A DNA stretch of 64,000 nt from a virus. Taxonomy: Duplodnaviria; Heunggongvirae; Uroviricota; Caudoviricetes. The notes under the pieces are model-generated. The model was not told the DNA's origin. It saw only the letters and a list, made by a program, of their open reading frames with translations, and did no database searches. Below are positions 2,382 through 31,175 of the stretch, in pieces. The stretch is from positions 64,977-128,976 of IMG/VR virus record IMGVR_UViG_2974564184_000001. One strand, written 5' to 3'. Numbering within the stretch: the stretch's first letter is position 1; each line of letters begins with the position of its first letter. A program made the translations under genes and the position numbers.

Positions 2382-4958
2382 ATGGCAACTACAGGTTCTG
2401 GCGGAGTGGTTTATGCAACAAAGTTGGTCGATTTGAAGACGAAGGTCGTGATTGAAGTCTCACAGCTCGCAGACAATCAGGGTGGTGGGGCCGAAGACCT
2501 CCCAGTTGCGACAGCAGACACCCTTGGTGGTGTGAAGGTAGGCTCTGGTCTTTCTGTCACAGCAGACGGAACGCTTTCGTCATCCGGTGGGTCTAATGTT
2601 GACTTGACACCGTACTCCAAGAAAGCGGACAATCTCTCTGACCTGGCAAGCAAAGCCACTGCACTTTCAAACTTGGGCGGGGCGGTTAAGACAGATATCG
2701 ACGGACTGACAAACTTTGCAGCACTTCGCAGCCGCGAACCAGCCTACGAGGGCGAACGTGTATACATCAAATGTCATACAGCTCCTGCTCTCTCAGTCTA
2801 CCTACCGGAAGGTGGTGGTTGGTTTATCGGCAGAAAAACAAAACAAGCTGACGATGGTGGATACGTCGCCTCGGCGGGTGGAAACTGGCACTGGCAAAGA
2901 GACAAAGATCTGAAAGACCTGTACATCGGGGACTTCGGAGGAGTTGCAGACGGTATCACAGATGCCCAACCTGCATTCTTGGCATACAAAAACTTCCTTT
3001 TTGGAACGTATGCTCGTGCAAAATCCGGTGGTACATCAGCAGGTGCTGGAGGATATTCTCCTAACTTTGCTCTTCGTTTCGGCGCGGGTACTTACTTCAT
3101 CAAACCTGGTGAGTACAACAAGTACGGATCGAAAGTTGCGTCCGGTGCAGCAGATGCTTCCTTCAACCCATCAGGGTACTACGCAGCGGGTGGTGTTCGT
3201 ATTGAGGGTGTCGCTGTGGAACAAGGCAAGATGCTGGCAACACGCATCATCTCTGACAAGAGTGACGCACCAGTATTCCTGATCAACCACCGTCGTGTTT
3301 CCTTCCATAACTTCATCTGGGATGGGCAGCAAACAACAAAGGTAGACCAGTACAACGCGAACACCAACCCGACAGGTACGAACCTGTTGATCGGCGCGAC
3401 CCAAGGTGTGTTCAATGATACAGCGTCCAACAAACAACCATTCCTTAAAAATGAATGCCCTGGTGGTTGCTACGCTCGAATCTCTTGTATCAACGCAGTA
3501 AACACAGGCTCTTACATGTTCTACTTGCTGGATACTTTAGACTCTAAAGTGGAGCAAGTGTTCAGTTCGATTACCGCAGGCCCGGTTATCCAGGTTGGTT
3601 GGTCAGGACAAACAGCCGGGGTATGGGATCACTCAACCTCTCTTGAAATCCGAAACTGTAACTTCGGCACTCCAGTAGCTCCAGCTATTTGGGCACCGCG
3701 TTGCGGCCAGGCTATCATGAACAACTGTTGGTTCGAGCACGGAACCATTCCTTTTGACATCAATAATGGTCAGTGGGATCTGGGAATGATTTGCGTGGAG
3801 GATTGCAGAAAGAACCCATCCTTGTGGTATTCAAAAACCACTTGTGTTACTCTCTCTGTACCAACAGGTAATGACTTTGACAGAAGCTCACCTACCAGCG
3901 GAACATGGGCCAGCTATCCTAAAAACCCGGATGGTTCGGACATCACTGCTTGGACAGGAGGATATGATCAGGGCAGTTGGTTGATGCAGAACCACGGAGC
4001 CTACTTCGAATGCCCTGTGGTCTACCCGTGGGGACGTGGATATCTCCGTGGAAGAAACGACTCAGATAGTGTCCTGTGGGTGAACATCGGGAACTTCCGT
4101 AACCCAACCAACGGTGGTTTCTGGAGAGTGAGAATCCTTGGTGGTTCGTACTACAACACCACTACTGCACAGAACATCCTCTCAGATGGTCTTGGTGGTG
4201 AGGCGACTATTAACATTGGTCGTGGTACAGGCACAACTCCGAAAATCTCTTGGTATTCCGAGGGATCTGGGCCTATTGCAAACGTAACCTCCACTGTATT
4301 CCCTCAGTACCAGCCTCAGACATCGAACGATATCGTCCCGGCAGTATGGATTCCGATCCGCCCTCGCTGTGGTGAGTTCACTGTGTTTGTTGAGGGAACG
4401 GGCCTTACAAGGAAGGAAGCGGGTATTCCGGCAGGATACACAGCCAGCGGATTCAGCCAGACTGCCAACCCGGGGTACACAAGAATCCCAGGGCGCTTTA
4501 GTTTCCACACCGGGCAGGCAGGTTTTGGGGCGAGCGGTGACGTTGCGGCGATCACAAGTCGATCAGCAGCGTCTGGGACAACTCCAGTTGATACATCCAA
4601 ACCACGCCAGTGGCTTCGTGTCAACGTAAACGGGATTGAGTATGCAATGCCTTACTATGCGTACACCCCGGTTATCACAACCCAACCAATTGCTCAAACT
4701 GTAGCTACCGGGGGAACTCTGACATTGACAACAGCAGCGAACGACGCGGCAGCATATCAGTGGCAGAAGTCTACGGACTCAGGCAGCACCTGGACGGATA
4801 TCGCCAACGCTACTGCGGCAACCTACACCAAGGCTTCCGTTGTGATTGGAGATGCAGGTCAATACCGGGCGGTCATTAGAGGTCAACTTGGGGCGGCGGA
4901 TGCAACTGTCACTACAAACCAAGCGACCACGAATGCAGTCGCGGTAACGGTCACTTAA
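2382..4958 (+). CDS. Tailspike-like putative exopolysaccharide depolymerase with C-terminal Ig-like domain (858 aa)
   Basis: Fibre motifs LPVATADTLGGVKVG and KADNLSDLAS; tailspike-head segment (FAALRSREP...DDGG...WQR...DFGGVADGITDAQPAF); beta-helix-like body; I-set-like Ig tail (PVITTQP...YQWQK...DAGQYRAVI). Confidence 0.65.
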   Translation: MATTGSGGVVYATKLVDLKTKVVIEVSQLADNQGGGAEDLPVATADTLGGVKVGSGLSVTADGTLSSSGGSNVDLTPYSKKADNLSDLASKATALSNLGGAVKTDIDGLTNFAALRSREPAYEGERVYIKCHTAPALSVYLPEGGGWFIGRKTKQADDGGYVASAGGNWHWQRDKDLKDLYIGDFGGVADGITDAQPAFLAYKNFLFGTYARAKSGGTSAGAGGYSPNFALRFGAGTYFIKPGEYNKYGSKVASGAADASFNPSGYYAAGGVRIEGVAVEQGKMLATRIISDKSDAPVFLINHRRVSFHNFIWDGQQTTKVDQYNANTNPTGTNLLIGATQGVFNDTASNKQPFLKNECPGGCYARISCINAVNTGSYMFYLLDTLDSKVEQVFSSITAGPVIQVGWSGQTAGVWDHSTSLEIRNCNFGTPVAPAIWAPRCGQAIMNNCWFEHGTIPFDINNGQWDLGMICVEDCRKNPSLWYSKTTCVTLSVPTGNDFDRSSPTSGTWASYPKNPDGSDITAWTGGYDQGSWLMQNHGAYFECPVVYPWGRGYLRGRNDSDSVLWVNIGNFRNPTNGGFWRVRILGGSYYNTTTAQNILSDGLGGEATINIGRGTGTTPKISWYSEGSGPIANVTSTVFPQYQPQTSNDIVPAVWIPIRPRCGEFTVFVEGTGLTRKEAGIPAGYTASGFSQTANPGYTRIPGRFSFHTGQAGFGASGDVAAITSRSAASGTTPVDTSKPRQWLRVNVNGIEYAMPYYAYTPVITTQPIAQTVATGGTLTLTTAANDAAAYQWQKSTDSGSTWTDIANATAATYTKASVVIGDAGQYRAVIRGQLGAADATVTTNQATTNAVAVTVT

Positions 4959-16058: not shown

Positions 16059-17558
16059 GTGGCCGACCAGAAAACATTCGGGTTAAACGACTACGGTTTC
16101 ACCGTGCCGTCCCTGGACACACTGATTGCAGAAACAAAAGAATCTCTGATCGCCATCTTTGGCGAGACCTTCAACACACAATCCAACTCCATCGTCGATA
16201 AACTGACAACGATCCTGAACGAACGTGAATATCAACTCATCCTTCTGGGACAGGCGATCTACGCTTCTGGGACACTGGCAGGTGCCGAAGGCATTTACCT
16301 TGATGAATTGCTGGGCCGTCGTGGTGTTTACCGCCGTGGTAAAACGAAGAGCACAGGTTCAATTGAGATGGCTGTCAACGCAACCGTCCCTTACAACCTT
16401 ATTTATACTCCAGACTCATTCACCGTTGACAATGGTACGTTCATCCTGACGGGAAACACGACCGTTGCGGGGAGTCTGATTGCACAGCAGATTTTAAACT
16501 CTGATCTGGTTCTTGGTAAATACACGTTCCAAGTCCTGAGTTCTGCTGACAACTCAATGAAGTCAATGAGTGTTACCCTTCGAAACAAGACCCCGGGTTC
16601 AACAGAGCTTAACACGTTCCTTTATTCGATCAAGGACTTTATCGTAACCAACACCACAGATTTGAACGCAGATCTGATTTATGTTGACTCCGCCGCAGGC
16701 GCACTGTACATTGGATACAACTCGACGAAAGAGCTTATCGGGCTTAACAGTCGCATCGACTTCCGTTCTTCTCCTATTGCTGGTACACGTACCTTGCAGT
16801 TCGAAGTTGTGGCAGTAGAAGCGGGTGTTCTCACAAGAGAAGCCAATACAGTGACGCAGATTTCTCCGACACCGAGCGGATTCATCTCTCTGAACAACAT
16901 GACCTCGTTTGCTGATGGTGCGGACGTGGAGACGGACAACGAATACAAAATTCGTGCGATGTCAATCACATCTGAGGCTTCCAAAGCAACACGTCCTGCT
17001 GTAATCTCCGCCCTTCTGGGTGTTGAAGGTGTTCAGAAAGTCAAGATCTTCGCCAACAACACAGATCAGCGCGACCAGTACGGTGTTCCAGCCTACAAAT
17101 TCGAGCCAGTTGTGTATGGTGGTGTAACGGAGCAGATCAGCCAGGCACTGTACAACACAATTGCTTTGTCCAATGGGACATACGGTAACACGTTCTACGA
17201 TATCACCACTGAGGATGATACTGTCGAGCGAATCTACCATAGCAAGGCGTCGTCCACGAGCTACAACGTACTGATCCGTTACCAAGGTAAGGTTCTCTCC
17301 TCAACCGAGCAGGATACTATCCGTCGTGCGATCAAGTTGATGACTGACGGTTTGACAATTGCAGATACCCTTTACAACATCCAGCTAATCGCTGCGGTTG
17401 CCGGGGCGGTATCAGCAGGTCGATTCACTCAGCTTACGGCTGCTGTGAAGAAGGCCAGCGAACCAACGTCCGCTTACACCTCTTCCGACGTAGTGTTGGG
17501 AATGCGTGAAGTGTTTGCTCTGGACACAGCGAACATCTTGTTCCAACAAATCACTTAA
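16059..17558 (+). CDS. Baseplate J-like wedge protein (499 aa, GTG start)
   Basis: AEGIYLDELLGRRGVYR, GADVETDNEYKIR, VEGVQKVKIFANNT motifs; SD GGAGG. Confidence 0.9.
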   Translation: MADQKTFGLNDYGFTVPSLDTLIAETKESLIAIFGETFNTQSNSIVDKLTTILNEREYQLILLGQAIYASGTLAGAEGIYLDELLGRRGVYRRGKTKSTGSIEMAVNATVPYNLIYTPDSFTVDNGTFILTGNTTVAGSLIAQQILNSDLVLGKYTFQVLSSADNSMKSMSVTLRNKTPGSTELNTFLYSIKDFIVTNTTDLNADLIYVDSAAGALYIGYNSTKELIGLNSRIDFRSSPIAGTRTLQFEVVAVEAGVLTREANTVTQISPTPSGFISLNNMTSFADGADVETDNEYKIRAMSITSEASKATRPAVISALLGVEGVQKVKIFANNTDQRDQYGVPAYKFEPVVYGGVTEQISQALYNTIALSNGTYGNTFYDITTEDDTVERIYHSKASSTSYNVLIRYQGKVLSSTEQDTIRRAIKLMTDGLTIADTLYNIQLIAAVAGAVSAGRFTQLTAAVKKASEPTSAYTSSDVVLGMREVFALDTANILFQQIT

Positions 17559-17568
17559 TGAGGGAAGC

Positions 17569-19758
17569 ATGGCAGATACATTGCAAGATGTAAACCACAT
17601 CCATGTGCTGCCTGACTTCGTGCAGGACGGGGTTAATTATCTACCTGGCGATTTCCTTCGCCAGAAAGAAAACCTTGTAAAGTTCTTGGGAACGTACCTT
17701 GAGAGACTTCGCGTAATTGACGAAATGCTTGTCAATCTCTCTGAGGGCCGACTGCTGGCGAATGCCGCTTACAAGAACCTGGACGAGATTGGCAGACAGC
17801 TTGGTGTTGACCGTAACGGTATGAGCGATGACAGTTATCGTGCTTCCATTACGATCCTACTGGCGAGTGCTTCAAAACACGGGACACGCCCGGAAGTTAT
17901 TCAAACTTTACGTCAGTTGTTTGGTGACCAAAACTTCACCACCTGGAAAGGTGACAACTATCGTATCGACATTCACGTAATGTCAACCTGTTTCCGACTG
18001 GAAGATCTCCTTCAAGAGATCAAAGATATGCTGCCCCTTCCAACGCATCTGCGTTTGATTGAATCGTATGGCAGAGCTTTCGGATTCAACGGCGATAAGG
18101 ACACCTTCGGGTTCTCCTCTGTGAATGCAAACAAGACAACGACAACCCAAGGTGGGATTGCTCGTCTGGTGTACACTTCTGATGAAGAGAACACTGGATA
18201 CATCATGACCGTCACAGTCGATGACATCACTGTCAACGCCTCTGAGGTAGCACCTGTAGGTATCGTGATCTCTATCTCTGATGCTGTTCTGACAGAATCA
18301 AGTGATAGTGTGACAATTGCACCACTGTCTGTAGCCTTCGGCACAGCTACCGTTGGGGAACCAACAGCAAGCAAGCTGATGACTGTGAACAACAACACTG
18401 ACTTCACGGTTACGATTGCAACCCTGACCATGCCGACCGGGTACACACTCGCATCTGGCAGTGCTCAAGTGGGAACTGTAATTGCTCCAAGAAAGACAGC
18501 CGATATTGCTGTTAGCTTTAATCCGCAAGAAGTCGGGAACATCTCTGGAAACATGGTTGTTACCACAACAGGACAAGCAAGCACGTTAAGAGTTCTTCTT
18601 TCTGGTGTTGGTAAGGCAGCTCCGATTGTTGGATTGCAGCGCCTGGTGACATCTGGTAACCAGTTCGTGACCACTCAGAGTGCTGAGAATTTCCGAATCA
18701 AATCTGTAAACTGGTTTGGTATGGAAGGTCTGAACTTCACCCCTCACGGAACGTGGGTCGGTGCTCGTTACTGGAAAGACATCATTGACCAGATCAAGAC
18801 ATTCGGATTTAACACGATCCGTATCCCTCTGTCTGGAGAAGTGGTACAGAACAACCCATACCCACCGAATGGTGCTGTGGACTTAGAGGTTAACTCTGAA
18901 TTCGTTGACAAGAGAGCGCTGGAGATCTTGGATCTCATCATTGCTTATTGCAACACTCAAGAAATCTATGTTATCCTTGACCATCACCGTCGTGCTGCGG
19001 GTACAGGTGCAGATGGCTCTCCGGTTGACGGAAGCTACAACTTGACCAAATGGTTGGACACTTGGACGAAACTGGCAACGCGCTATAAATCAGCGGTTAA
19101 CGTTATCGGGGCAGACGTTCACAACGAACCGCATGACCTTGACTGGGCAACGTGGGCAGGCTATGCTGAACAAGCTGGTAATGCTATCCACGCTGTGACC
19201 ACTGATTGGATCATCTTCGTTGAAGGTGTTGGACAGTACGAGAATGTCAGCTACTGGTGGGGCGGTCAGCTTCAAGGTGTTGCAACTCGTCCGGTAACTC
19301 TGACTCAACCGAACCGTGTGGCTTACAGCCCTCACGAATACGGACAGAGCGTTGGAAGTCAGTCTTGGCTGGCATACGACAATCAGACACCTCCGGTGAA
19401 CTGGCCTAACAACTTGTACGGCGTTTGGCAACCAATGTGGGGTTACATCTTCACACAGAATATTGCGCCGCTTTGGGTCGGTGAGTTTGGTGGACACTTC
19501 GGTGTCGATGGTAACGGAAACGTAACTAAGCCTCACGCAACCTATGAGAAGCAATGGCTCAATAATCTCATCAAATATTGGAATGGTGACTTTGACGGCA
19601 ACGGGACAAAAGATCTGGCAGCAGGGAAGAAAGGAATTTCCTACAGCTACTGGAGCTACAACCCGAACAGTGGTGATACAGGTGGTCTTGTAGAAGACGA
19701 CTGGGTAACTCCTCAAACTGTGAAGCTCGATCTGCTCGCTCCTGCATTGTCCGACTGA
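17569..19758 (+). CDS. Baseplate wedge protein (DUF2612/gpI-like) fused to Ig-like domain and GH5 endoglucanase (729 aa)
   Basis: Likely start ATG 17569 (SD GAGG). N-terminal LDEIGRQLGVDR wedge motif; C-terminal GH5 motifs VNWFG, GFNTIRIP, VILDHHR, HNEPH (Glu codon 19126), YSPHEYG, VGEFGG (Glu codon 19483), YWSYNPNSGDTGG. Confidence 0.92.
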   Translation: MADTLQDVNHIHVLPDFVQDGVNYLPGDFLRQKENLVKFLGTYLERLRVIDEMLVNLSEGRLLANAAYKNLDEIGRQLGVDRNGMSDDSYRASITILLASASKHGTRPEVIQTLRQLFGDQNFTTWKGDNYRIDIHVMSTCFRLEDLLQEIKDMLPLPTHLRLIESYGRAFGFNGDKDTFGFSSVNANKTTTTQGGIARLVYTSDEENTGYIMTVTVDDITVNASEVAPVGIVISISDAVLTESSDSVTIAPLSVAFGTATVGEPTASKLMTVNNNTDFTVTIATLTMPTGYTLASGSAQVGTVIAPRKTADIAVSFNPQEVGNISGNMVVTTTGQASTLRVLLSGVGKAAPIVGLQRLVTSGNQFVTTQSAENFRIKSVNWFGMEGLNFTPHGTWVGARYWKDIIDQIKTFGFNTIRIPLSGEVVQNNPYPPNGAVDLEVNSEFVDKRALEILDLIIAYCNTQEIYVILDHHRRAAGTGADGSPVDGSYNLTKWLDTWTKLATRYKSAVNVIGADVHNEPHDLDWATWAGYAEQAGNAIHAVTTDWIIFVEGVGQYENVSYWWGGQLQGVATRPVTLTQPNRVAYSPHEYGQSVGSQSWLAYDNQTPPVNWPNNLYGVWQPMWGYIFTQNIAPLWVGEFGGHFGVDGNGNVTKPHATYEKQWLNNLIKYWNGDFDGNGTKDLAAGKKGISYSYWSYNPNSGDTGGLVEDDWVTPQTVKLDLLAPALSD

Positions 19759-19769
19759 GAGGAGTAACA

Positions 19770-22190
19770 ATGAGACAGGCTACATTTACAACAACCCTCA
19801 ACCAGGCCAGCGAATCGCTGGTCACGGTTGACTATGCCACCCAGGACGGATCTGCGGTGGCACCCGCTAACTATACAGCTAAGTCTGGGACTTTGACGTT
19901 TGCAGCAGGGGAAACCTCTAAAGACATCATCGTCCTTGTGAACGACGACGCGCCTGCGGAGACAGAGACGAACTTCTATGTTCTCTTGACCAATCCGCAG
20001 AACGGCGTCTTAGGGACTTCTCGTGGTACGGCTACAGTACCGGGTTCAGAAGAACCACCGAAGACGAACTATCTGGAACGGTTCAAGACCATTTACAACA
20101 TGGTTCATGATGTCGATAACAAATACTTTGGGCCGCAGACAGGGGCGAATGCTCGCACACTGCCACGTCACATCCCGGGTGTTGATAGTATCATCATCAA
20201 CGAAGCGCCTGACCACGGTGGTGAAACCGTATCAGAAACTGCTTCCTTCTGGGTTGGTCTGGAAGCGTGGAATGGTTACGTAAGCGGACAACTGGGAACC
20301 GCCGATTGGTCAGGTTATAACAACGCCTGGAACCAGATCGATAAGTTCTACGTTCCGTCTGCGACTAACCAGCCGATTGCGACGTATCTACCAGCGAAAC
20401 CAGCGGACTACACCCCAGAGGGTGACTTGCCGAGTGCTTACCCGACACTGGGTGACCCGACAGCAGCCCACGGTACTGACCCGTTAGCAGATGAGTTGGA
20501 ATCAACCTACGGCAACAAGCGCATGTATCTCATGCACTGGATTCTGGACGTTGAAGGCTTGTACAATTTCCGAAATGGCGATGGTACTAAGCAGAACGTG
20601 TATATCAACACGTATGAACGCGGTATGCAGGAATCTTCTTTCGAGACGGTAACGCACCCGGCGTGGAACGACTTTGCTAACGGTGGTTCTATCTACGGAT
20701 ATGACCCATTGTTCACCCAAGGATCTCAGTGGTATCCAGCAGCAGCCAACGATTGGGGTAAGAAGTGGTCATACACTAACGCACCCGATGCAGAAGGCCG
20801 TGCGATCCAGTGGTCATTCTGGGCGCAGAAGTTTGCAACCGAACAAGGCGCAGGTACAGCCATCTCTGCTTCGACTACAAAAGCGAAGAAGATGGGCGAC
20901 TACATGCGTTACAACCTTTTCGATAAATATTTCCGCAAAATTGGTGATAATCAATTAGGTGGGACGGGTTACGAAAGTTGCCATTATCTGGTAAACTGGT
21001 ATGCAGCATGGGGCGGTGAGATTCCGGCAGCAGGAGCTACAGCTTCTTGGTCGTATCGTATCGGTTCCTCTGAGTGTCACCAAGGTTATCAGGCAATCGA
21101 CTCAGCATATTTCATGGCAACAGGTGGTGGTGGATTCAGTCCTCTGTCCCCGAGCGCTTCTGACATTTGGTTAGGCTCTGTCTACCGTCAGATGGAAATG
21201 CTTCGTTGGTTGCAATCAGCAGAAGGCCCGTTAGCAGGTGGTGTGACGAACTCCTGGAACTCTCGTTACGAGACTCCTACCGATGGTCGTCAGAACGCCA
21301 AGTTCTACGGAATGGTTTATACCTATGCTCCAGTATGGCACGATCCACCATCAAACGACTGGGTTGGTTTCCAGACATGGGGTCAAGGCCGTACAGCGGA
21401 TCTGTTCTTGGAAGTGTCTGATAAGGCAACTCCACTGGCAACAACATTGAAAGCCAACCTTGAGGTCATCCTTGATCCTCTGGTTGTGTGGTTCCTGAAC
21501 AACTCTACGTTGTCCTCTGATGGTTCATTCCTGCTCCCGGGAACTCTGTCTTGGACTTCCCCGACGCAAGTTGTTGGTCAGACGGCGACCGCGCCAAACC
21601 ACGAAGGTGTGTATGAATACCTTCCATCCCTTAACTGGGACGGAACAGGTAACCAAGCAGCATTCTGGAATGCGTCCACAGTTCCTAACCCGAACTTGCA
21701 TTGCAGCATTGTTGAGTATGCAACCGACCTCGGTGTTGCAGCGTCCTTGGCTTACATGTTGATCTCTTACGCGAAAGCGAAGCAGAACATGGGTAAATTC
21801 ACCACCAAGATCAAAAGTACAAACCACACCGCAGAAACTGCGTTGACGTTTGCCAAAGAATTGCTGGATCGCATGTGGAACAAATACGTCGATGACGTTG
21901 GCCTCGCGATTGACAGTTCAATGTCAAGCTACAAGCGTCTGTTTGACACGGTGTATGTGCCAGAGATCTTCACAGGTACGATGCCGAACGGCGAGCAGAT
22001 CAAGACGGGCGTTAAGTTCCATGAACTTCGTACCTTCTTGCACGATGACCCTAAATGGGCAGAAGTACAGGCGTATGCGACAGGTGCTACTAACGTGCCA
22101 CCAGTGTTCAAATACCACCGCTTCTGGGCGCAAGCCGAATTCGCGATCAGTCTCGCGGCTCTCCATCGTTACTTTAGCGACGTGATCTGA
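19770..22190 (+). CDS. Calx-beta domain plus glycoside hydrolase family 48 cellulase (806 aa)
   Basis: Calx-beta (VDYATQDGSA...YTAKSGTLTFAAGETSK); GH48 motifs YLERF, EAPDHG-ETVSE, MHWILDV, INTYERG, YTNAPDAEGRAIQ, GGVTNSW, YHRFWAQ; no signal peptide. Confidence 0.92.
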   Translation: MRQATFTTTLNQASESLVTVDYATQDGSAVAPANYTAKSGTLTFAAGETSKDIIVLVNDDAPAETETNFYVLLTNPQNGVLGTSRGTATVPGSEEPPKTNYLERFKTIYNMVHDVDNKYFGPQTGANARTLPRHIPGVDSIIINEAPDHGGETVSETASFWVGLEAWNGYVSGQLGTADWSGYNNAWNQIDKFYVPSATNQPIATYLPAKPADYTPEGDLPSAYPTLGDPTAAHGTDPLADELESTYGNKRMYLMHWILDVEGLYNFRNGDGTKQNVYINTYERGMQESSFETVTHPAWNDFANGGSIYGYDPLFTQGSQWYPAAANDWGKKWSYTNAPDAEGRAIQWSFWAQKFATEQGAGTAISASTTKAKKMGDYMRYNLFDKYFRKIGDNQLGGTGYESCHYLVNWYAAWGGEIPAAGATASWSYRIGSSECHQGYQAIDSAYFMATGGGGFSPLSPSASDIWLGSVYRQMEMLRWLQSAEGPLAGGVTNSWNSRYETPTDGRQNAKFYGMVYTYAPVWHDPPSNDWVGFQTWGQGRTADLFLEVSDKATPLATTLKANLEVILDPLVVWFLNNSTLSSDGSFLLPGTLSWTSPTQVVGQTATAPNHEGVYEYLPSLNWDGTGNQAAFWNASTVPNPNLHCSIVEYATDLGVAASLAYMLISYAKAKQNMGKFTTKIKSTNHTAETALTFAKELLDRMWNKYVDDVGLAIDSSMSSYKRLFDTVYVPEIFTGTMPNGEQIKTGVKFHELRTFLHDDPKWAEVQAYATGATNVPPVFKYHRFWAQAEFAISLAALHRYFSDVI

Positions 22191-22231: not shown

Positions 22232-22585
22232 ATGGCAACGGTTACAGCTACCTTCACCCTTAGCAGGGACAATTTCGCGGAGATTAGTTCTCTGGACTAT
22301 GCGACAAGTGATGGCACCGCGATTGCAGGTGTTGATTATGTGGCAAAGTCAGGACGGATCACCATGAGCGCAGGCACCGTAGAGGTGCAAATCTCAATTG
22401 ATGTAATGACCAAGCCGAAAGGCACCCCGAGCAAGACCTTCTTCCTCGATTTGTCAAACCCATCTAAGTATCGAAAACTCATTACCAAAATCGCCCGGAC
22501 AAGAGCGGTGTGTACGATTTACACCACTGACGCTGGCCCACTCGCTGTCATCAGCATTAGCGATGCAGTAATCACACAAGTATAA
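22232..22585 (+). CDS. Stand-alone out-of-phase Calx-beta protein (117 aa)
   Basis: LDYATSDGTAIAGVDYVAKSGRITM...TFFLDLSNPS; lacks N-terminal strand and ends in VISISDAVITQV. Confidence 0.85.
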   Translation: MATVTATFTLSRDNFAEISSLDYATSDGTAIAGVDYVAKSGRITMSAGTVEVQISIDVMTKPKGTPSKTFFLDLSNPSKYRKLITKIARTRAVCTIYTTDAGPLAVISISDAVITQV

Positions 22586-22595
22586 CGAGGATATC

Positions 22596-23534
22596 ATGGC
22601 ACAACCTGAGATCGAGATCGAAGTATGGGCAGGGTTAGATTATGATCTGCCTAATGCCCTGACAAAAAACAAAATCAGACCTATCTCTGACCTATGGGAT
22701 AAGGGATATGATATGGGCGAGAAGCCTGATGTCCAGGCGTGGAACTACGTGTGGTACATGCTGACTGTGTGGATGAAGTACATGCAGGAAGAGCAGCTTC
22801 CAGGTCTTGATAACCTTTACCTGAAACGCACAAGAAACCTTGAGGAACTGACTGATAAGCCACAGGCTCGTAGTAACTTGGGTGTTTATTCGAAAGATGA
22901 CTCCGACAACCGTTACTTGCAGCTAACGGGTGGCGCTCTGTCAGGTGGATTGAAAATTGCTGGTAACACCGCAGTTGATATCACCTCACAAGGTCTTGCT
23001 ATTCGCTGGAACGAGACCAACGGCTCAGGCGCTACCTTCTTTGTCAACAACCAGGGTGGTGGGACAGGTGGTTTTGTATTCCGTAACGTGAACGCATTAG
23101 GTACTGCGGAAACTGGTCGTGTAACGATCCAGCCGAACGGCTCTCTGGTAACTTCCGCTACAGTTCGTGGTGGAACTCTGGAATCAACTGGTAACGCCAG
23201 TGTAGCAGGAACCACAACAACTGCCAACCTTACGGTGCAGAATAACGCAGCAACAGTTGGTGGACGACATGTAGCGAGAGCAGTGAACGGAAACATCGCA
23301 GACGAGAACGGTAACGTGACAGTGACCATTCCTTCTCCTGGTGTTACTGACGTTCGTCTTGGGTCTCAAGGGAACCAAGGTGCTTCGAATAGCTTCACAG
23401 TTCCTGCTGGATGCCTGGTTACAGGTCTTAACGGTTTCAAAGTAACCGGGCCTGACTTCCAACTTTATGGTCTATTCTACCGTCCTCTCCAGAAATTCCT
23501 CAACGGGGTCTGGGTGACCGTTTCAGTAATCTAA
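22596..23534 (+). CDS. Tail fibre protein (312 aa)
   Basis: Baseplate-attachment N-terminus (WDKGYDMGEKP...WNY); C-terminal tip DVRLG...VPAGCLVTG...YRPLQKFLNGVW; followed by fibre assembly gene. Confidence 0.8.
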   Translation: MAQPEIEIEVWAGLDYDLPNALTKNKIRPISDLWDKGYDMGEKPDVQAWNYVWYMLTVWMKYMQEEQLPGLDNLYLKRTRNLEELTDKPQARSNLGVYSKDDSDNRYLQLTGGALSGGLKIAGNTAVDITSQGLAIRWNETNGSGATFFVNNQGGGTGGFVFRNVNALGTAETGRVTIQPNGSLVTSATVRGGTLESTGNASVAGTTTTANLTVQNNAATVGGRHVARAVNGNIADENGNVTVTIPSPGVTDVRLGSQGNQGASNSFTVPAGCLVTGLNGFKVTGPDFQLYGLFYRPLQKFLNGVWVTVSVI

Positions 23535-23543
23535 GGAGATTGT

Positions 23544-24044
23544 ATGATCCACCTGAAAAATTTTAAAATCTACACCCCGGAGACCGTCCCAGACGGTTTC
23601 TTGGGACACGAAGTCGTGTTCTTTCAATCCGAAGATGGTGTGGATTTCTACCAAATCCTTGCAGATATGAAAGAGGATACCGTCAAGGTATTGTACCGTG
23701 ATGATGTCGTTGTTGGATTCTCAACCGACGCCAGCGCACTTTACCCTGCCGATGCCAGCCTCATCGAGTTGAAAGCCGAGAACATTCCTGATGATATCTC
23801 TATCGACGGAAGGTTCATGGTAGACTTCAAGAAGAGAGCTGTCAAGCTAAATGAGAAAGCCATTCTCGAAAACACCAAGGAGCAAATCCTTGCTGAGATT
23901 GCGCCGACCATTGAAGACCTTCAAGACAAGGTTGACACAGGTGACGCTACGGATGAAACGCTTGAAACCTTCAAACAGTGGAAAGCATACCGTATCGCCG
24001 TCAGAAAAGCAACTACGCTGGAAGAGCTTCCAGAGAAACCGTAA
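23544..24044 (+). CDS. Tail fibre assembly protein (Tfa-like)
   Basis: FFQSEDGVDFY...FSTDASALYP; C-terminal LQDKVD...WKAYRIAV...PEKP. Confidence 0.85.
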   Translation: MIHLKNFKIYTPETVPDGFLGHEVVFFQSEDGVDFYQILADMKEDTVKVLYRDDVVVGFSTDASALYPADASLIELKAENIPDDISIDGRFMVDFKKRAVKLNEKAILENTKEQILAEIAPTIEDLQDKVDTGDATDETLETFKQWKAYRIAVRKATTLEELPEKP

Positions 24045-29067: not shown

Positions 29068-29607
29068 ATGCTACCATCCTATTCTGTAGATGTGCAAGAT
29101 GCGGCTCCTCGCTTGGTGACCTTACCAGACGGGACAGTTATCGACCTGACAGCTCAACAGCCAGCAGGACAAGGGCCATCACGTTTGAGTGTATTGCTCG
29201 GAAAGATTATGACCCAAATTACAGAACAACAGAAGCAGATCAACGCTCAAAATGTCCTGATTGAGGGTATGCAGACTAAATTGGAAGCCATCGAACTCGC
29301 TCTGCATTCTGATGGTGAAGACGCTGACTACGCCGCTCAAGTGACGGTTATCAAGAACTATCTTGCGACCCGTGTTGTTGATCGATTGAACACTCTTGAA
29401 CAAAGTATGTTCCGCGTTGCAGCAGGAAGCACAAAGCAGACCACCTTGATTGACTACGCGATGAAGCGTGTTGATATGGGAGACTACATGGGCTTCTTCA
29501 AGCCTCAGCTTGATGCTCTCGATACTGTAGCACCTAAGTACGAAGACTACCAAGGAACTGGAACCCCGGTAGAGCGTACAGAAGCAGACAAACTTATCAC
29601 TGGATGA
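29068..29607 (+). CDS. Coiled-coil protein, possible fibre-associated (179 aa)
   Basis: Heptad-rich; shares VTLxDGTxIDLT with the long fibre. Confidence 0.65.
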   Translation: MLPSYSVDVQDAAPRLVTLPDGTVIDLTAQQPAGQGPSRLSVLLGKIMTQITEQQKQINAQNVLIEGMQTKLEAIELALHSDGEDADYAAQVTVIKNYLATRVVDRLNTLEQSMFRVAAGSTKQTTLIDYAMKRVDMGDYMGFFKPQLDALDTVAPKYEDYQGTGTPVERTEADKLITG

Positions 29608-29614
29608 TACAAAC

Positions 29615-29649
29615 AAAAAAGGCACCCCGAAGGGTGCCTTTTTCTTTTT
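29615..29649. terminator. Bidirectional terminator at convergent strand switch
   Basis: A6-GGCACCC-CGAA-GGGTGCC-T-run between + and - modules. Confidence 0.9.
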
Positions 29650-29654
29650 CCGTC

Positions 29655-30824
29655 TTAGAACGGAATGTCATCATCGAAGTCCATCGGAGGATCGAAGTCT
29701 TCAACACTTGGCGCTGCACTTTGAGGTGCATTGCTCAGAGGCTCTGGGACGCTCTGTGGAGCGCTTTGAGGCTCTTGTGCTGTAACACCAGCAATATGCT
29801 CACGCAGGGTCGCTGCGAGTGCAATGGCTTCGCGTGTGGCCGCTTCCAGCTCATCTACGGACAGAGTTTTGCCTTTGACAGCAATACCAGTCGCTGCGAA
29901 CTTGACTGCGTTACCAACTGACATTCCTTCATCCTTGCCAGAGGCATCGGAGAATTCTTTAATCAGACGAGTAGTCACATCATGTGCAACCTTACCTGCT
30001 TCTACCAGGTCACCCTTGAATCCCGCCAGGCGAAGATTGGAAAGTACGTTCAGTGCATGTCCGGTGGACACACCTACCGCGTCATACTTACCTTTACCTT
30101 TGCTACCGTTGGAGCCAGAGTTCTGACCTACCGGGCCATACGCTTTGAAGCCAGAGGTGATTACACCAGTCTCTTTCACAATGAAAGCCGTCAGACGACC
30201 ACCCACTGCTACTTGACCCAGTTGCTCATCACTCAGAACCACATCGCCAGCGCCCAGCTTTTCATCAGCCACAGTTGCAGTGTTGCCATTGATTGCTGTG
30301 ATTTCACCGTAGATCTTCACAGAACCGCCTGCCGGAGCAGAAGCATTACCAGCGGCTGGAGCACGAGGAGCGGGAGCGCCTGCCTTGCTCTCATCCAGAA
30401 TGTTGAACACCTTGCCGCTCAGAGTTCCGTTCACGTAGGTTTTATCCCCGGTCTTGGAAACTTTCAGAGGGAAAGACGCAACCATACCTGGAAGAATGTC
30501 TTTGTATCCCGCGTCGAACTTAACCTGAACCTTATCAGCATGGCTCGGGTGCAGTTTCTTTTCGCCCATGCCGATCCACTCACCCTGACCCGCTGGGTCG
30601 ATCACGTTGTTATCCGCGTCAACATCCTGCATCAGGAAGCTAATGGTGTGGGTTGCTTCGATAACCTTTGCAGGTTGACCGTTTTTCGCAGGGATGTGAG
30701 TACGTTTAACCCCATCAGCATCCGCACCTTTCACTGGCTTGATGTTGATGAACTTGATGCTGCCTTTAGCGAAGTTGTTCACTTTGCCGGACATAGGGTC
30801 TTTGTATTCGTTAATTACGCTCAT
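29655..30824 (-). CDS. ssb: Single-stranded DNA-binding protein
   Basis: Acidic C-terminal tip FDPPMDFDDDIPF after a Pro/Ala/Gln linker; beta-rich N-terminal domains. Confidence 0.75.
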   Translation of the reverse strand: MSVINEYKDPMSGKVNNFAKGSIKFINIKPVKGADADGVKRTHIPAKNGQPAKVIEATHTISFLMQDVDADNNVIDPAGQGEWIGMGEKKLHPSHADKVQVKFDAGYKDILPGMVASFPLKVSKTGDKTYVNGTLSGKVFNILDESKAGAPAPRAPAAGNASAPAGGSVKIYGEITAINGNTATVADEKLGAGDVVLSDEQLGQVAVGGRLTAFIVKETGVITSGFKAYGPVGQNSGSNGSKGKGKYDAVGVSTGHALNVLSNLRLAGFKGDLVEAGKVAHDVTTRLIKEFSDASGKDEGMSVGNAVKFAATGIAVKGKTLSVDELEAATREAIALAATLREHIAGVTAQEPQSAPQSVPEPLSNAPQSAAPSVEDFDPPMDFDDDIPF

Positions 30825-31175
30825 TTACTCTCCCGAGTTTTCATTTTGATTGTTATCGGCATCCGCCGTGGAATTTGGTGCAGTCAGCTCTGCAACCAGT
30901 GCATCATCTACCTGAGCCAGAAGATTCTGGGACACCAGCACACCGTGCAGGATATTCAGGAGGTGATTGCGTTGGGAGCGCACCCAAGCCAGGTTGTCGG
31001 CTGTGGTTTTGCTTCCGTGATCCTCAATGCTCTTCAACATTAAGGCTTTCATATCCTCACCTTCAACCAGTTGCTGTAACTGGCGTGACAGACTGGTGAG
31101 TGACATAATCATGCCGAACTGACCAGGGGTTAAACCGAGGTACATATCGACAGTTTGTTCTGCTTGAGCAGTCAT
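30825..31175 (-). CDS. Hypothetical protein (116 aa)
   Basis: ORF with SD AAGGAGAG, abuts ssb. Confidence 0.7.
   Translation of the reverse strand: MTAQAEQTVDMYLGLTPGQFGMIMSLTSLSRQLQQLVEGEDMKALMLKSIEDHGSKTTADNLAWVRSQRNHLLNILHGVLVSQNLLAQVDDALVAELTAPNSTADADNNQNENSGE

Follow-up and report, generated by a model that had tools for sequence, protein, structure and literature searches.

The GH48 gene and its product

The window analysed here, a 64,000-nucleotide stretch of phage DNA (bases 64977-128976 of the 148,842-bp virus record IMGVR_UViG_2974564184_000001, which has direct terminal repeats), carries on its plus strand, at 19770..22190, a gene whose 806-amino-acid product joins an N-terminal Calx-beta domain to a catalytic domain of glycoside hydrolase family 48 (GH48). 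The reading frame is open over all 806 codons and is preceded by a GAGGAG Shine-Dalgarno sequence (19759..19764, plus strand, read from the sequence), which ends 5 nt before the ATG and starts 1 nt past the TGA stop codon (19756-19758) of the upstream gene, encoding a family 5 glycoside hydrolase (GH5), so that stop and start codons are 11 nt apart. In a Pfam search the product matched Glyco_hydro_48 (PF02011) with an E-value of 1.1e-195 and 652 bits against a cut-off of 25, in two stretches (profile positions 1-461 and 445-619), and Calx-beta at residues 14-79 (E 6e-15), while a phmmer search of the PDB placed all solved GH48 structures at the top (E 1e-148 to 1e-101).

An AlphaFold2 model of the protein, built on a 67-sequence alignment, had a mean predicted local distance difference test (pLDDT) score of 94.8 and a predicted template modelling (pTM) score of 0.86. 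The overlay on CelS and Cel48F that an earlier note on this DNA had proposed was run on this model, and the GH48 fold superposed on the enzymes of C. bescii, C. thermocellum (CelS) and C. cellulolyticum (Cel48F) with template modelling (TM) scores of 0.92-0.96 and a root mean square deviation (rmsd) of 2.0-2.5 Å (TMt 0.95-0.96 and rmsd 2.0-2.1 Å for 4l0g, 4el8, 1g9j and 5yj6), with the (alpha/alpha)6 barrel present. This catalytic domain occupies residues 101-806 (20070..22187, plus strand) and includes E145, E156 (the predicted acid) and D340 (the candidate base). The N-terminal domain, an Ig-like beta-sandwich at residues ~14-92 (19809..20045, plus strand), was recognised by Pfam, by Foldseek, in which it resembled the Calx/NCX CBD and integrin beta4 Calx-beta domains (TMt ~0.7), and by the beta strands at residues 2-90 of the model. 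No signal peptide, carbohydrate-binding module (CBM) or dockerin was found in the protein by Pfam domain scan and reading of the sequence.

Compared with its orthologue in Erwinia phage pEp_SNUABM_01, the gene had a ratio of non-synonymous to synonymous substitution rates (dN/dS) of 0.069 at a dS of 0.93, against 0.070 for the baseplate J gene, and is thus under strong purifying selection, on a par with a structural gene of the virion. The gene is therefore real and intact, as the earlier note had proposed from the sequence and as the 806-codon frame, the 652-bit match to PF02011 and the model at TM 0.95 bear out, and it is very probably functional.

The phage and its baseplate and tail fibre operon

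The phage from which the window comes is a Henunavirus (Hena1-like) Erwinia myophage, which agrees with the earlier description of it as an enterobacterial-type phage carrying a GH48 gene. Its GH48 protein is 90% identical, over the full length, to QEQ94900.1 (806 amino acids) of pEp_SNUABM_01, which together with pEa_SNUABM_55/56 belongs to the genus Henunavirus (founding member Hena1) and has the same gene order at this locus. DNA identity between the two phages is 81.5% across the two hydrolase genes and ~81-83% at the locus, and so the window phage represents a different species or strain.

The genes around the GH48 gene, all on the plus strand, run in the order baseplate J, GH5 fusion, Calx-GH48, small Calx protein, tail fibre and assembly protein, placing the GH48 gene between genes for baseplate proteins on one side and for a tail fibre and its assembly protein on the other. 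The first encodes a baseplate J-like wedge protein of 499 amino acids (16059..17558; Pfam Baseplate_J, E 4e-08; phrog_6 baseplate wedge subunit, E 1e-40). Directly upstream of the GH48 gene, as the earlier note's mention of a GH5 anticipated, lies the gene for a 729-amino-acid fusion protein (17569..19758; its start ATG at 17569 was chosen after the pEp_SNUABM_01 annotation, the longest reading frame beginning at GTG 17506). Residues 1-218 of this protein match phrog_4056, a baseplate protein conserved in the Vequintavirinae (E 5e-87), and are followed by an Ig-like domain (~18310-18612) and a GH5 endoglucanase domain (~18700-19671; phrog_18474 hydrolase, E 6e-126; Pfam Cellulase PF00150, E 9e-45), in which N519/E520 and E639 are invariant among 14 phage homologues. 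An extension hinted at by tblastn, by which the 729-amino-acid protein would also have held the N-terminus of the tail fibre of Klebsiella phage KpS11, was rejected when direct comparison showed no similarity.

Downstream of the GH48 gene, a stand-alone Calx-beta protein of 117 amino acids (22232..22585; Pfam Calx-beta, E 2e-10) shares 36% identity with the N-terminal domain of the GH48 protein, for which it might be an adaptor or scaffold, and is conserved in pEp_SNUABM_01. It is followed by a short tail fibre of 312 amino acids (22596..23534; phrog_4465 tail fibre, E 4e-67; 37% identity to the KpS11 tail fibre) and a tail fibre assembly protein (23544..24044; Pfam Caudo_TAP; phrog_136, E 9e-41). 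In other Vequintavirinae (Salmonella phage SPLA5a and KpS11) the baseplate part is instead a stand-alone gene for a protein of ~210 amino acids, the order being baseplate J, this baseplate protein, tail fibre and assembly protein, with no cellulases there. Because the baseplate gene of SPLA5a and KpS11 directly precedes the homologous tail fibre gene, the Henunaviruses carry an insertion of ~4.3 kb, which, as read from this gene order, comprises Calx-GH48, the small Calx protein and an Ig-GH5 part joined in frame to the baseplate protein.

Elsewhere in the window, the head and neck genes, rather than the tail genes, surround a gene for an 858-amino-acid candidate exopolysaccharide (EPS) depolymerase (2382-4958, plus strand; phrog_4250, E 6e-167) that has a Hoc-like Ig domain at its C-terminus. 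Together with the GH5 and GH48 proteins it brings the candidate glycan-degrading virion proteins of this phage to three. Coding strand and GC skew both switch sign near 30 kb (~29600-31000), at the end of the rightward structural operon with the cellulases.

Relatives in other Erwinia phages

Full-length homologues of the GH48 protein were found in 15 GenBank phage records, all of Erwinia phages: four are Henunaviruses and 11 are N4-like Schitoviridae (including S6, Pastis, phiEaP8, Kuerle and the Fifi phages; 55-64% identity). The Henunavirus proteins are labelled in GenBank only as "putative glycoside hydrolase" or "hypothetical protein". A published system with the same enzyme pair is that of S6 (vB_EamP-S6, Schitoviridae), a podovirus with the same host genus, whose gp094 has the same Calx-beta and GH48 layout and is 64% identical over 810 aligned positions, and whose GH5 protein, gp095, is 59% identical over 414 amino acids to the window GH5, the N-terminal parts of the two being unrelated. 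When the S6 genes around its cellulases were compared with the window, only gp095 residues 368-777 and gp094 matched, at 18544-22184. Both pairs lie in a receptor-binding or tail region, but the S6 pair sits beside a lysis cassette, whereas in the window the pair is within a myovirus baseplate operon, the GH5 is fused to a baseplate protein and an extra Calx protein of 117 amino acids follows the GH48.

In the literature on S6 (PMC9544554), gp094 is described as a Calx-beta and GH48 protein with predicted catalytic residues E155 and D331, gp095 is a GH5 that degrades carboxymethylcellulose, S6 is unable to infect bcs (cellulose synthase) mutants, Congo red blocks infection, and cellulose is modelled as the first receptor. 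S6 virions have also been reported to have cellulase activity (PMC13220884), and the CAZy family GH48 is said to cover "enzymes from viruses" (PMC11238990). The novelty that the earlier note attached to a GH48 in a phage therefore does not hold, since viral GH48s are already in GenBank and CAZy and the same enzyme pair has been published for Erwinia phage S6; what stands is that only the GH5 of the pair has been characterised biochemically.

A deep phage GH48 clade

A survey of 5.8 billion proteins, clustered at 90% identity, yielded ~92 clusters of ~800-amino-acid proteins, nearly all with Calx-beta and GH48 and with 41-91% identity to the window protein, whereas the classical actinobacterial CBM2-GH48 enzymes started only at ~41% identity in the same survey. 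The whole GH48 family came to 443 clusters at 50% identity among 1.84 billion representatives. Among the matches listed, the best identity of a cellular GH48 to the window protein was ~41-47%, and a scan of representative genome contigs gave, again among the matches listed, only classical, mostly actinobacterial GH48s at 39-42% identity, which were used as tree labels.

The phylogeny with bacterial and viral homologues that the earlier note had called for was built with FastTree (161 rows) and with IQ-TREE (77 rows, LG+C20, SH-aLRT support), both trees being unrooted. In the FastTree phylogeny 14 of the 15 IMG/VR sequences and all sampled proteins of the ~800-amino-acid group fell on one side of a branch with 100% support, and all labelled cellular sequences (Actinomycetota, Bacillota, Chloroflexota, Myxococcota and Acidobacteriota) on the other; IQ-TREE recovered the same bipartition of phage and cellular sequences with support of 100. 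In both trees the window protein and that of pEp_SNUABM_01 nest with S6 in a well-supported subclade. On these trees, then, the GH48s of phages and prophages form one deep clade apart from all sampled cellular GH48s. The earlier note had inferred a horizontal capture from a distant donor, but that this phage recently took the gene from a cellulolytic specialist is excluded by the depth of the phage clade, its 100% support and the cellular identity of ~41-47%; because the trees are unrooted, we name no donor.

Members of the clade were found in N4-like contigs of 72-78 kb, where GH5, GH48, lysis genes and portal are arranged as in S6, in IMG/VR contigs of 53-68 kb, and in prophages of Alphaproteobacteria (Novosphingobium) and of a Pseudomonadota metagenome-assembled genome (MAG), which have a P22-type portal, an SU10 adaptor and a GH5 protein with a Gp77 N-terminus. 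In two of these prophages (L005 and L006, from Novosphingobium sp. PhB55 and the Pseudomonadota MAG) Calx-beta proteins also flank the GH48, and a polyvalent protein of 5,500-6,200 amino acids with SLT, helicase, ART-PolyVal and LPD domains is encoded beside the tail genes. Separately, a 255-kb jumbo-phage IMG/VR contig (L098:6512-9845) encodes a GH48 of the classical type, with 35% identity and lacking the phage-clade insertion described below, directly downstream of a GH5; it would seem that phages acquired this pair of enzymes a second time, independently.

A linked GH5 and GH48 cassette

A GH5 homologue was found just upstream of the GH48 in 17 of 17 phage and prophage loci examined, the jumbo-phage contig included, and two further contigs (L104 and L105) have the same arrangement. 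That the two enzymes act together is supported independently by metagenomic single-chain fusions, one of 1326 amino acids in the order GH5-GH48-Ig (P0036) and one of 1643 amino acids in the order GH48-GH5-Calx (P0123). In another metagenomic protein (P0124, L105:4512-8705, 1397 amino acids) a phage-clade GH48 is fused to a C-terminal GDSL/SGNH esterase; its gene lies in a podophage tail module that also encodes an SU10 adaptor, Gp77 and a GH5. That a cellulase carries an esterase may point to acetylated bacterial cellulose as its target.

Judged from these comparisons, the end of the Ig linker, the GH5 and the Calx-GH48 (18544-22184 in the window) make up a cassette, an old mobile module present in at least three phage lineages (Henunavirus, Schitoviridae and the SU10-adaptor/P22-portal prophages of Alphaproteobacteria). 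Since the N-termini of the window GH5 protein and gp095 are unrelated and the match starts at 18544, the shared module starts within the GH5 protein, the anchor being particular to each lineage.

Catalytic residues, tunnel and clade-specific insertions

The earlier note had picked out a catalytic-acid motif with Glu at about 156 and a candidate-base motif with Asp at about 340; both were located, the first, EAPDHGGETVSE, at residues 145-156 with the acid Glu as E156, and the second, YTNAPDAEGRAIQ, at residues 335-347 with the Asp as D340. E145, E156 and D340 align with E44, E55 and D230 of Cel48F, the roles of which are given in PMC4055089, and H134 aligns with the partner histidine H36. In an alignment of 110 phage-clade and 101 classical rows, these residues are kept almost without exception in the phage clade (E145 in 110/110 rows, E156 in 108/110, D340 in 110/110 and H134 in 108/110), and D340, in the NAPDA loop, is also kept in 97 of the 101 classical rows.

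The 36 tunnel residues listed by Brunecky et al. (PMC5707792, Table 2) were mapped onto the window protein via a Bacillus-type homologue aligned to 5bv9/7kw6. Twenty-five of the 36 are identical or inside the published variation, nine differ and two are ambiguous in the alignment. The residues kept include W257, N280, Y282, T336, K386, Y387, W410, Y411, W427, I431, Y440, W523, W531, F534, W537, D653, R784 and W786, and all aromatics of subsites -3 to +3 are kept if one Tyr-to-Trp change, also present in T. fusca GH48, is counted. The nine differing positions are D213, T215, E283, G318, K332, S334, Y429, S716 and M718. Six of these changes lie at the chain-entry end (T to D213, A to T215, D to G318, Q to K332, R to S334 and W to Y429), and the Thr at the position of D213 is T110 of Cel48F, which contacts subsites -5/-4 (PMC4055089). 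The change of Gln to E283 is found in the window protein, with Gln retained by most phage-clade rows, and the two changes in the product-side loop (E to S716 and R to M718) are confined to the Henunavirus branch, this loop reading DSSMSSY in the window and DSPQPGY in pEp_SNUABM_01. By this mapping the tunnel core around the scissile bond is intact, while the entry end and the product loop are changed. Tunnel residue L121 seemed to be deleted in the multiple alignment, but inspection showed L227 there, in a loop shortened by one residue, and the deletion was rejected.

The earlier note had taken HGGE and SFWVG to be altered tunnel residues, but H149, G151, E152, F160, W161, V162 and G163 are all outside the 36-residue list, and the true tunnel changes sit elsewhere. 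H149 is variable in both clades; G151 is His in 99 of 101 classical rows and divides in the phage clade between His (63) and Gly (44), and G163 is Trp in 89 of 101 classical rows and Gly or Lys in the phage clade, so that, as aligned here, G151 and G163 are clade-typical substitutions.

Two insertions set the phage clade apart from the classical enzymes. The shorter, of ~8 residues (~318-325, GSQWYPAA; 20721..20744, plus strand), lies in the tunnel-entry segment just before the catalytic-base loop and adjoins the D to G318 change; the column of A325 holds Ala in 94 of 110 phage-clade rows and a gap in 75 of 101 classical rows. The longer, of ~30 residues (~596-632; 21555..21665, plus strand), with conserved N610, E612, E616 and F632, has 100% occupancy across the 110 rows of the phage clade, against no more than 2% of the 101 classical rows for most of its columns. 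Every alignment with a PDB entry breaks in two at this insertion, which has a pLDDT of 95-97. By sequence correspondence it follows residue 467 of Cel48F and enlarges the surface loop E466-L484, for which a distance of 3.5 nm from the tunnel has been reported (PMC4055089), and it probably forms a protein-protein contact surface.

Taken against the cellular GH48s (C. bescii CelA, CelS, Cel48F and T. fusca Cel48A), with which it is 37-41% identical in structural alignments, the phage protein shares the fold, the catalytic Glu and Asp and most tunnel residues but lacks CBM, dockerin and signal peptide and has instead a Calx-beta domain, two insertions and a remodelled tunnel entry.

Proposed function in the virion

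We propose, with a probability of about 0.72, that the GH48 protein and the baseplate-fused GH5 together constitute a virion-borne endo/exo cellulose depolymerase which binds and digests Erwinia cellulose. The proposal draws on the family, fold and catalytic residues of the protein, the selection on its gene, its operon position, the homology to S6 and the linkage of GH5 and GH48. The GH48 is presumably active on cellulose and a component of the virion, and the window phage may depend on cellulose. The GH5, fixed to the baseplate wedge by its fusion, would make internal cuts in cellulose, and the GH48 would thread the chain ends and remove cellobiose processively, so that cellulose would be the first receptor of the phage, and its digestion by the pair would open a way across the matrix to the outer membrane. 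Such an arrangement follows the logic of phage tailspike and tail fibre depolymerases (the L1/Y2 amylovoran depolymerase and the K1F endosialidase), in which a tail-borne enzyme acts on a surface polysaccharide that is the primary receptor. Tailspike depolymerases, however, are typically trimeric beta-helices with one enzyme per spike, whereas here there are two unrelated globular enzymes, a TIM-barrel GH5 and an (alpha/alpha)6 GH48, a pair which, unlike those depolymerases, imitates a bacterial endo/exo cellulase system.

Several points weigh against this proposal. Enzyme activity of the phage pair has been demonstrated for the GH5 partner only (S6 gp095), and cellulose dependence for S6 only (PMC9544554) and for no Henunavirus. 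Nine tunnel positions, S716 and M718 of the product-side loop among them, are unlike those of published cellular enzymes, which could alter kinetics or specificity. The phage also encodes the separate EPS depolymerase (2382..4958) and a fibre of 1297 amino acids, and hence cellulose need not be an essential receptor. Lastly, the GH48 protein shows only its Calx-beta domain and the distal surface insertion for attachment to the virion and has no recognisable lineage-specific anchor, unlike the GH5 protein with its phrog_4056 part.

This lack of a baseplate or fibre anchor would also be expected if the GH48 were not structural but a soluble enzyme, produced late and set free by lysis to dissolve the cellulose biofilm so that progeny escape and reach new cells. 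Release at lysis needs no signal peptide, and in S6 and a metagenomic N4-like contig the pair is directly beside the holin and endolysin cassette. We nevertheless regard a soluble enzyme as unlikely in the window phage, where the gene is embedded among baseplate and tail fibre genes and its obligate partner, the GH5, is joined to a baseplate protein in one polypeptide; the cellulase activity reported for S6 virions (PMC13220884) also argues for a virion enzyme, and the clade insertion, in a surface loop distant from the tunnel, would suit docking to another protein.

The changes in the tunnel bear on two further alternatives, that the substrate is another beta-linked host polymer (chitin-like, PNAG-like or a mixed-linkage glucan), or that the GH48 domain is a cellulose-binding adhesin or receptor-binding protein which does not hydrolyse. 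GH48 does include chitinases (EC 3.2.1.14; PMC11238990), and the clade-wide remodelling of the entry end (D213, T215, G318, Y429 and the 8-residue insertion) would suit a different polymer, but the subsites around the scissile bond are the same as in cellulases, the GH48 is strictly linked to a GH5 whose S6 orthologue degrades carboxymethylcellulose, and S6 resistance maps to bcs genes (PMC9544554), which together make a different substrate highly improbable. An adhesin would be compatible with the loss of the product-side E716 and R718 in the window phage, with the good grip expected of a glucan-threading tunnel and with the intrinsically low activity of GH48 enzymes (PMC5707792); binding alone, however, would not demand that the acid, the base and E145 be kept in 108-110 of 110 clade members at identities down to ~41%, and the H134-E156 pair is kept as well, so that we find an adhesin scarcely credible. 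The earlier note's suggestion that the altered residues reflect adaptation to modified bacterial cellulose is weakened, since the E. amylovora bcs cluster is reported to be without bcsEFG, the phosphoethanolamine (pEtN) modification genes (PMC9544554).

A possible directional role and wider significance

Beyond clearing the matrix, a baseplate-borne GH48 might act as a directional motor that pulls the virion to the cell surface and the BcsC export pore, an idea we put forward tentatively and think doubtful. Bacterial cellulose exits the cell reducing end first and grows at its non-reducing end at the synthase (PMC8892547), and GH48s are processive cellobiohydrolases acting from the reducing end (PMC11238990); since the chain emerges reducing end first and the enzyme acts from that end, a threaded GH48 would move the virion cellward, with the GH5 creating new chain ends. 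The BcsC pore has been proposed by Romling as a secondary receptor (PMC9544554). Were the motor reading true, both the remodelled tunnel entry and the obligatory pairing with a GH5 would reflect adaptation to single nascent glucan chains rather than to crystalline plant cellulose.

If the virion-borne depolymerase that we favour is right, bacterial cellulose should be a receptor for Erwinia myophages of the Hena1 type, as it is for the podophage S6. Phages with a common receptor select for the same bcs resistance mutants, which would make this prediction relevant to cocktails used against fire blight. Used by itself, S6 reportedly gives poor disease control, and bcs mutants are said to be still virulent.

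What is new here is the in-frame graft on a myovirus baseplate protein, the limits of the cassette, the deep GH5-linked phage GH48 clade with insertions of its own and the map of its tunnel at the level of residues. The locus offers a clean example of receptor-binding modules grafted onto differing baseplate anchors. Phages maintain a deep GH48 lineage of their own, always paired with a GH5, in a cassette that moves among podophages, myophages and prophages of cellulose-producing Proteobacteria, and this lineage would represent an untapped pool of compact, CBM-free endo/exo cellulase pairs, predicted to have evolved against bacterial cellulose biofilms.

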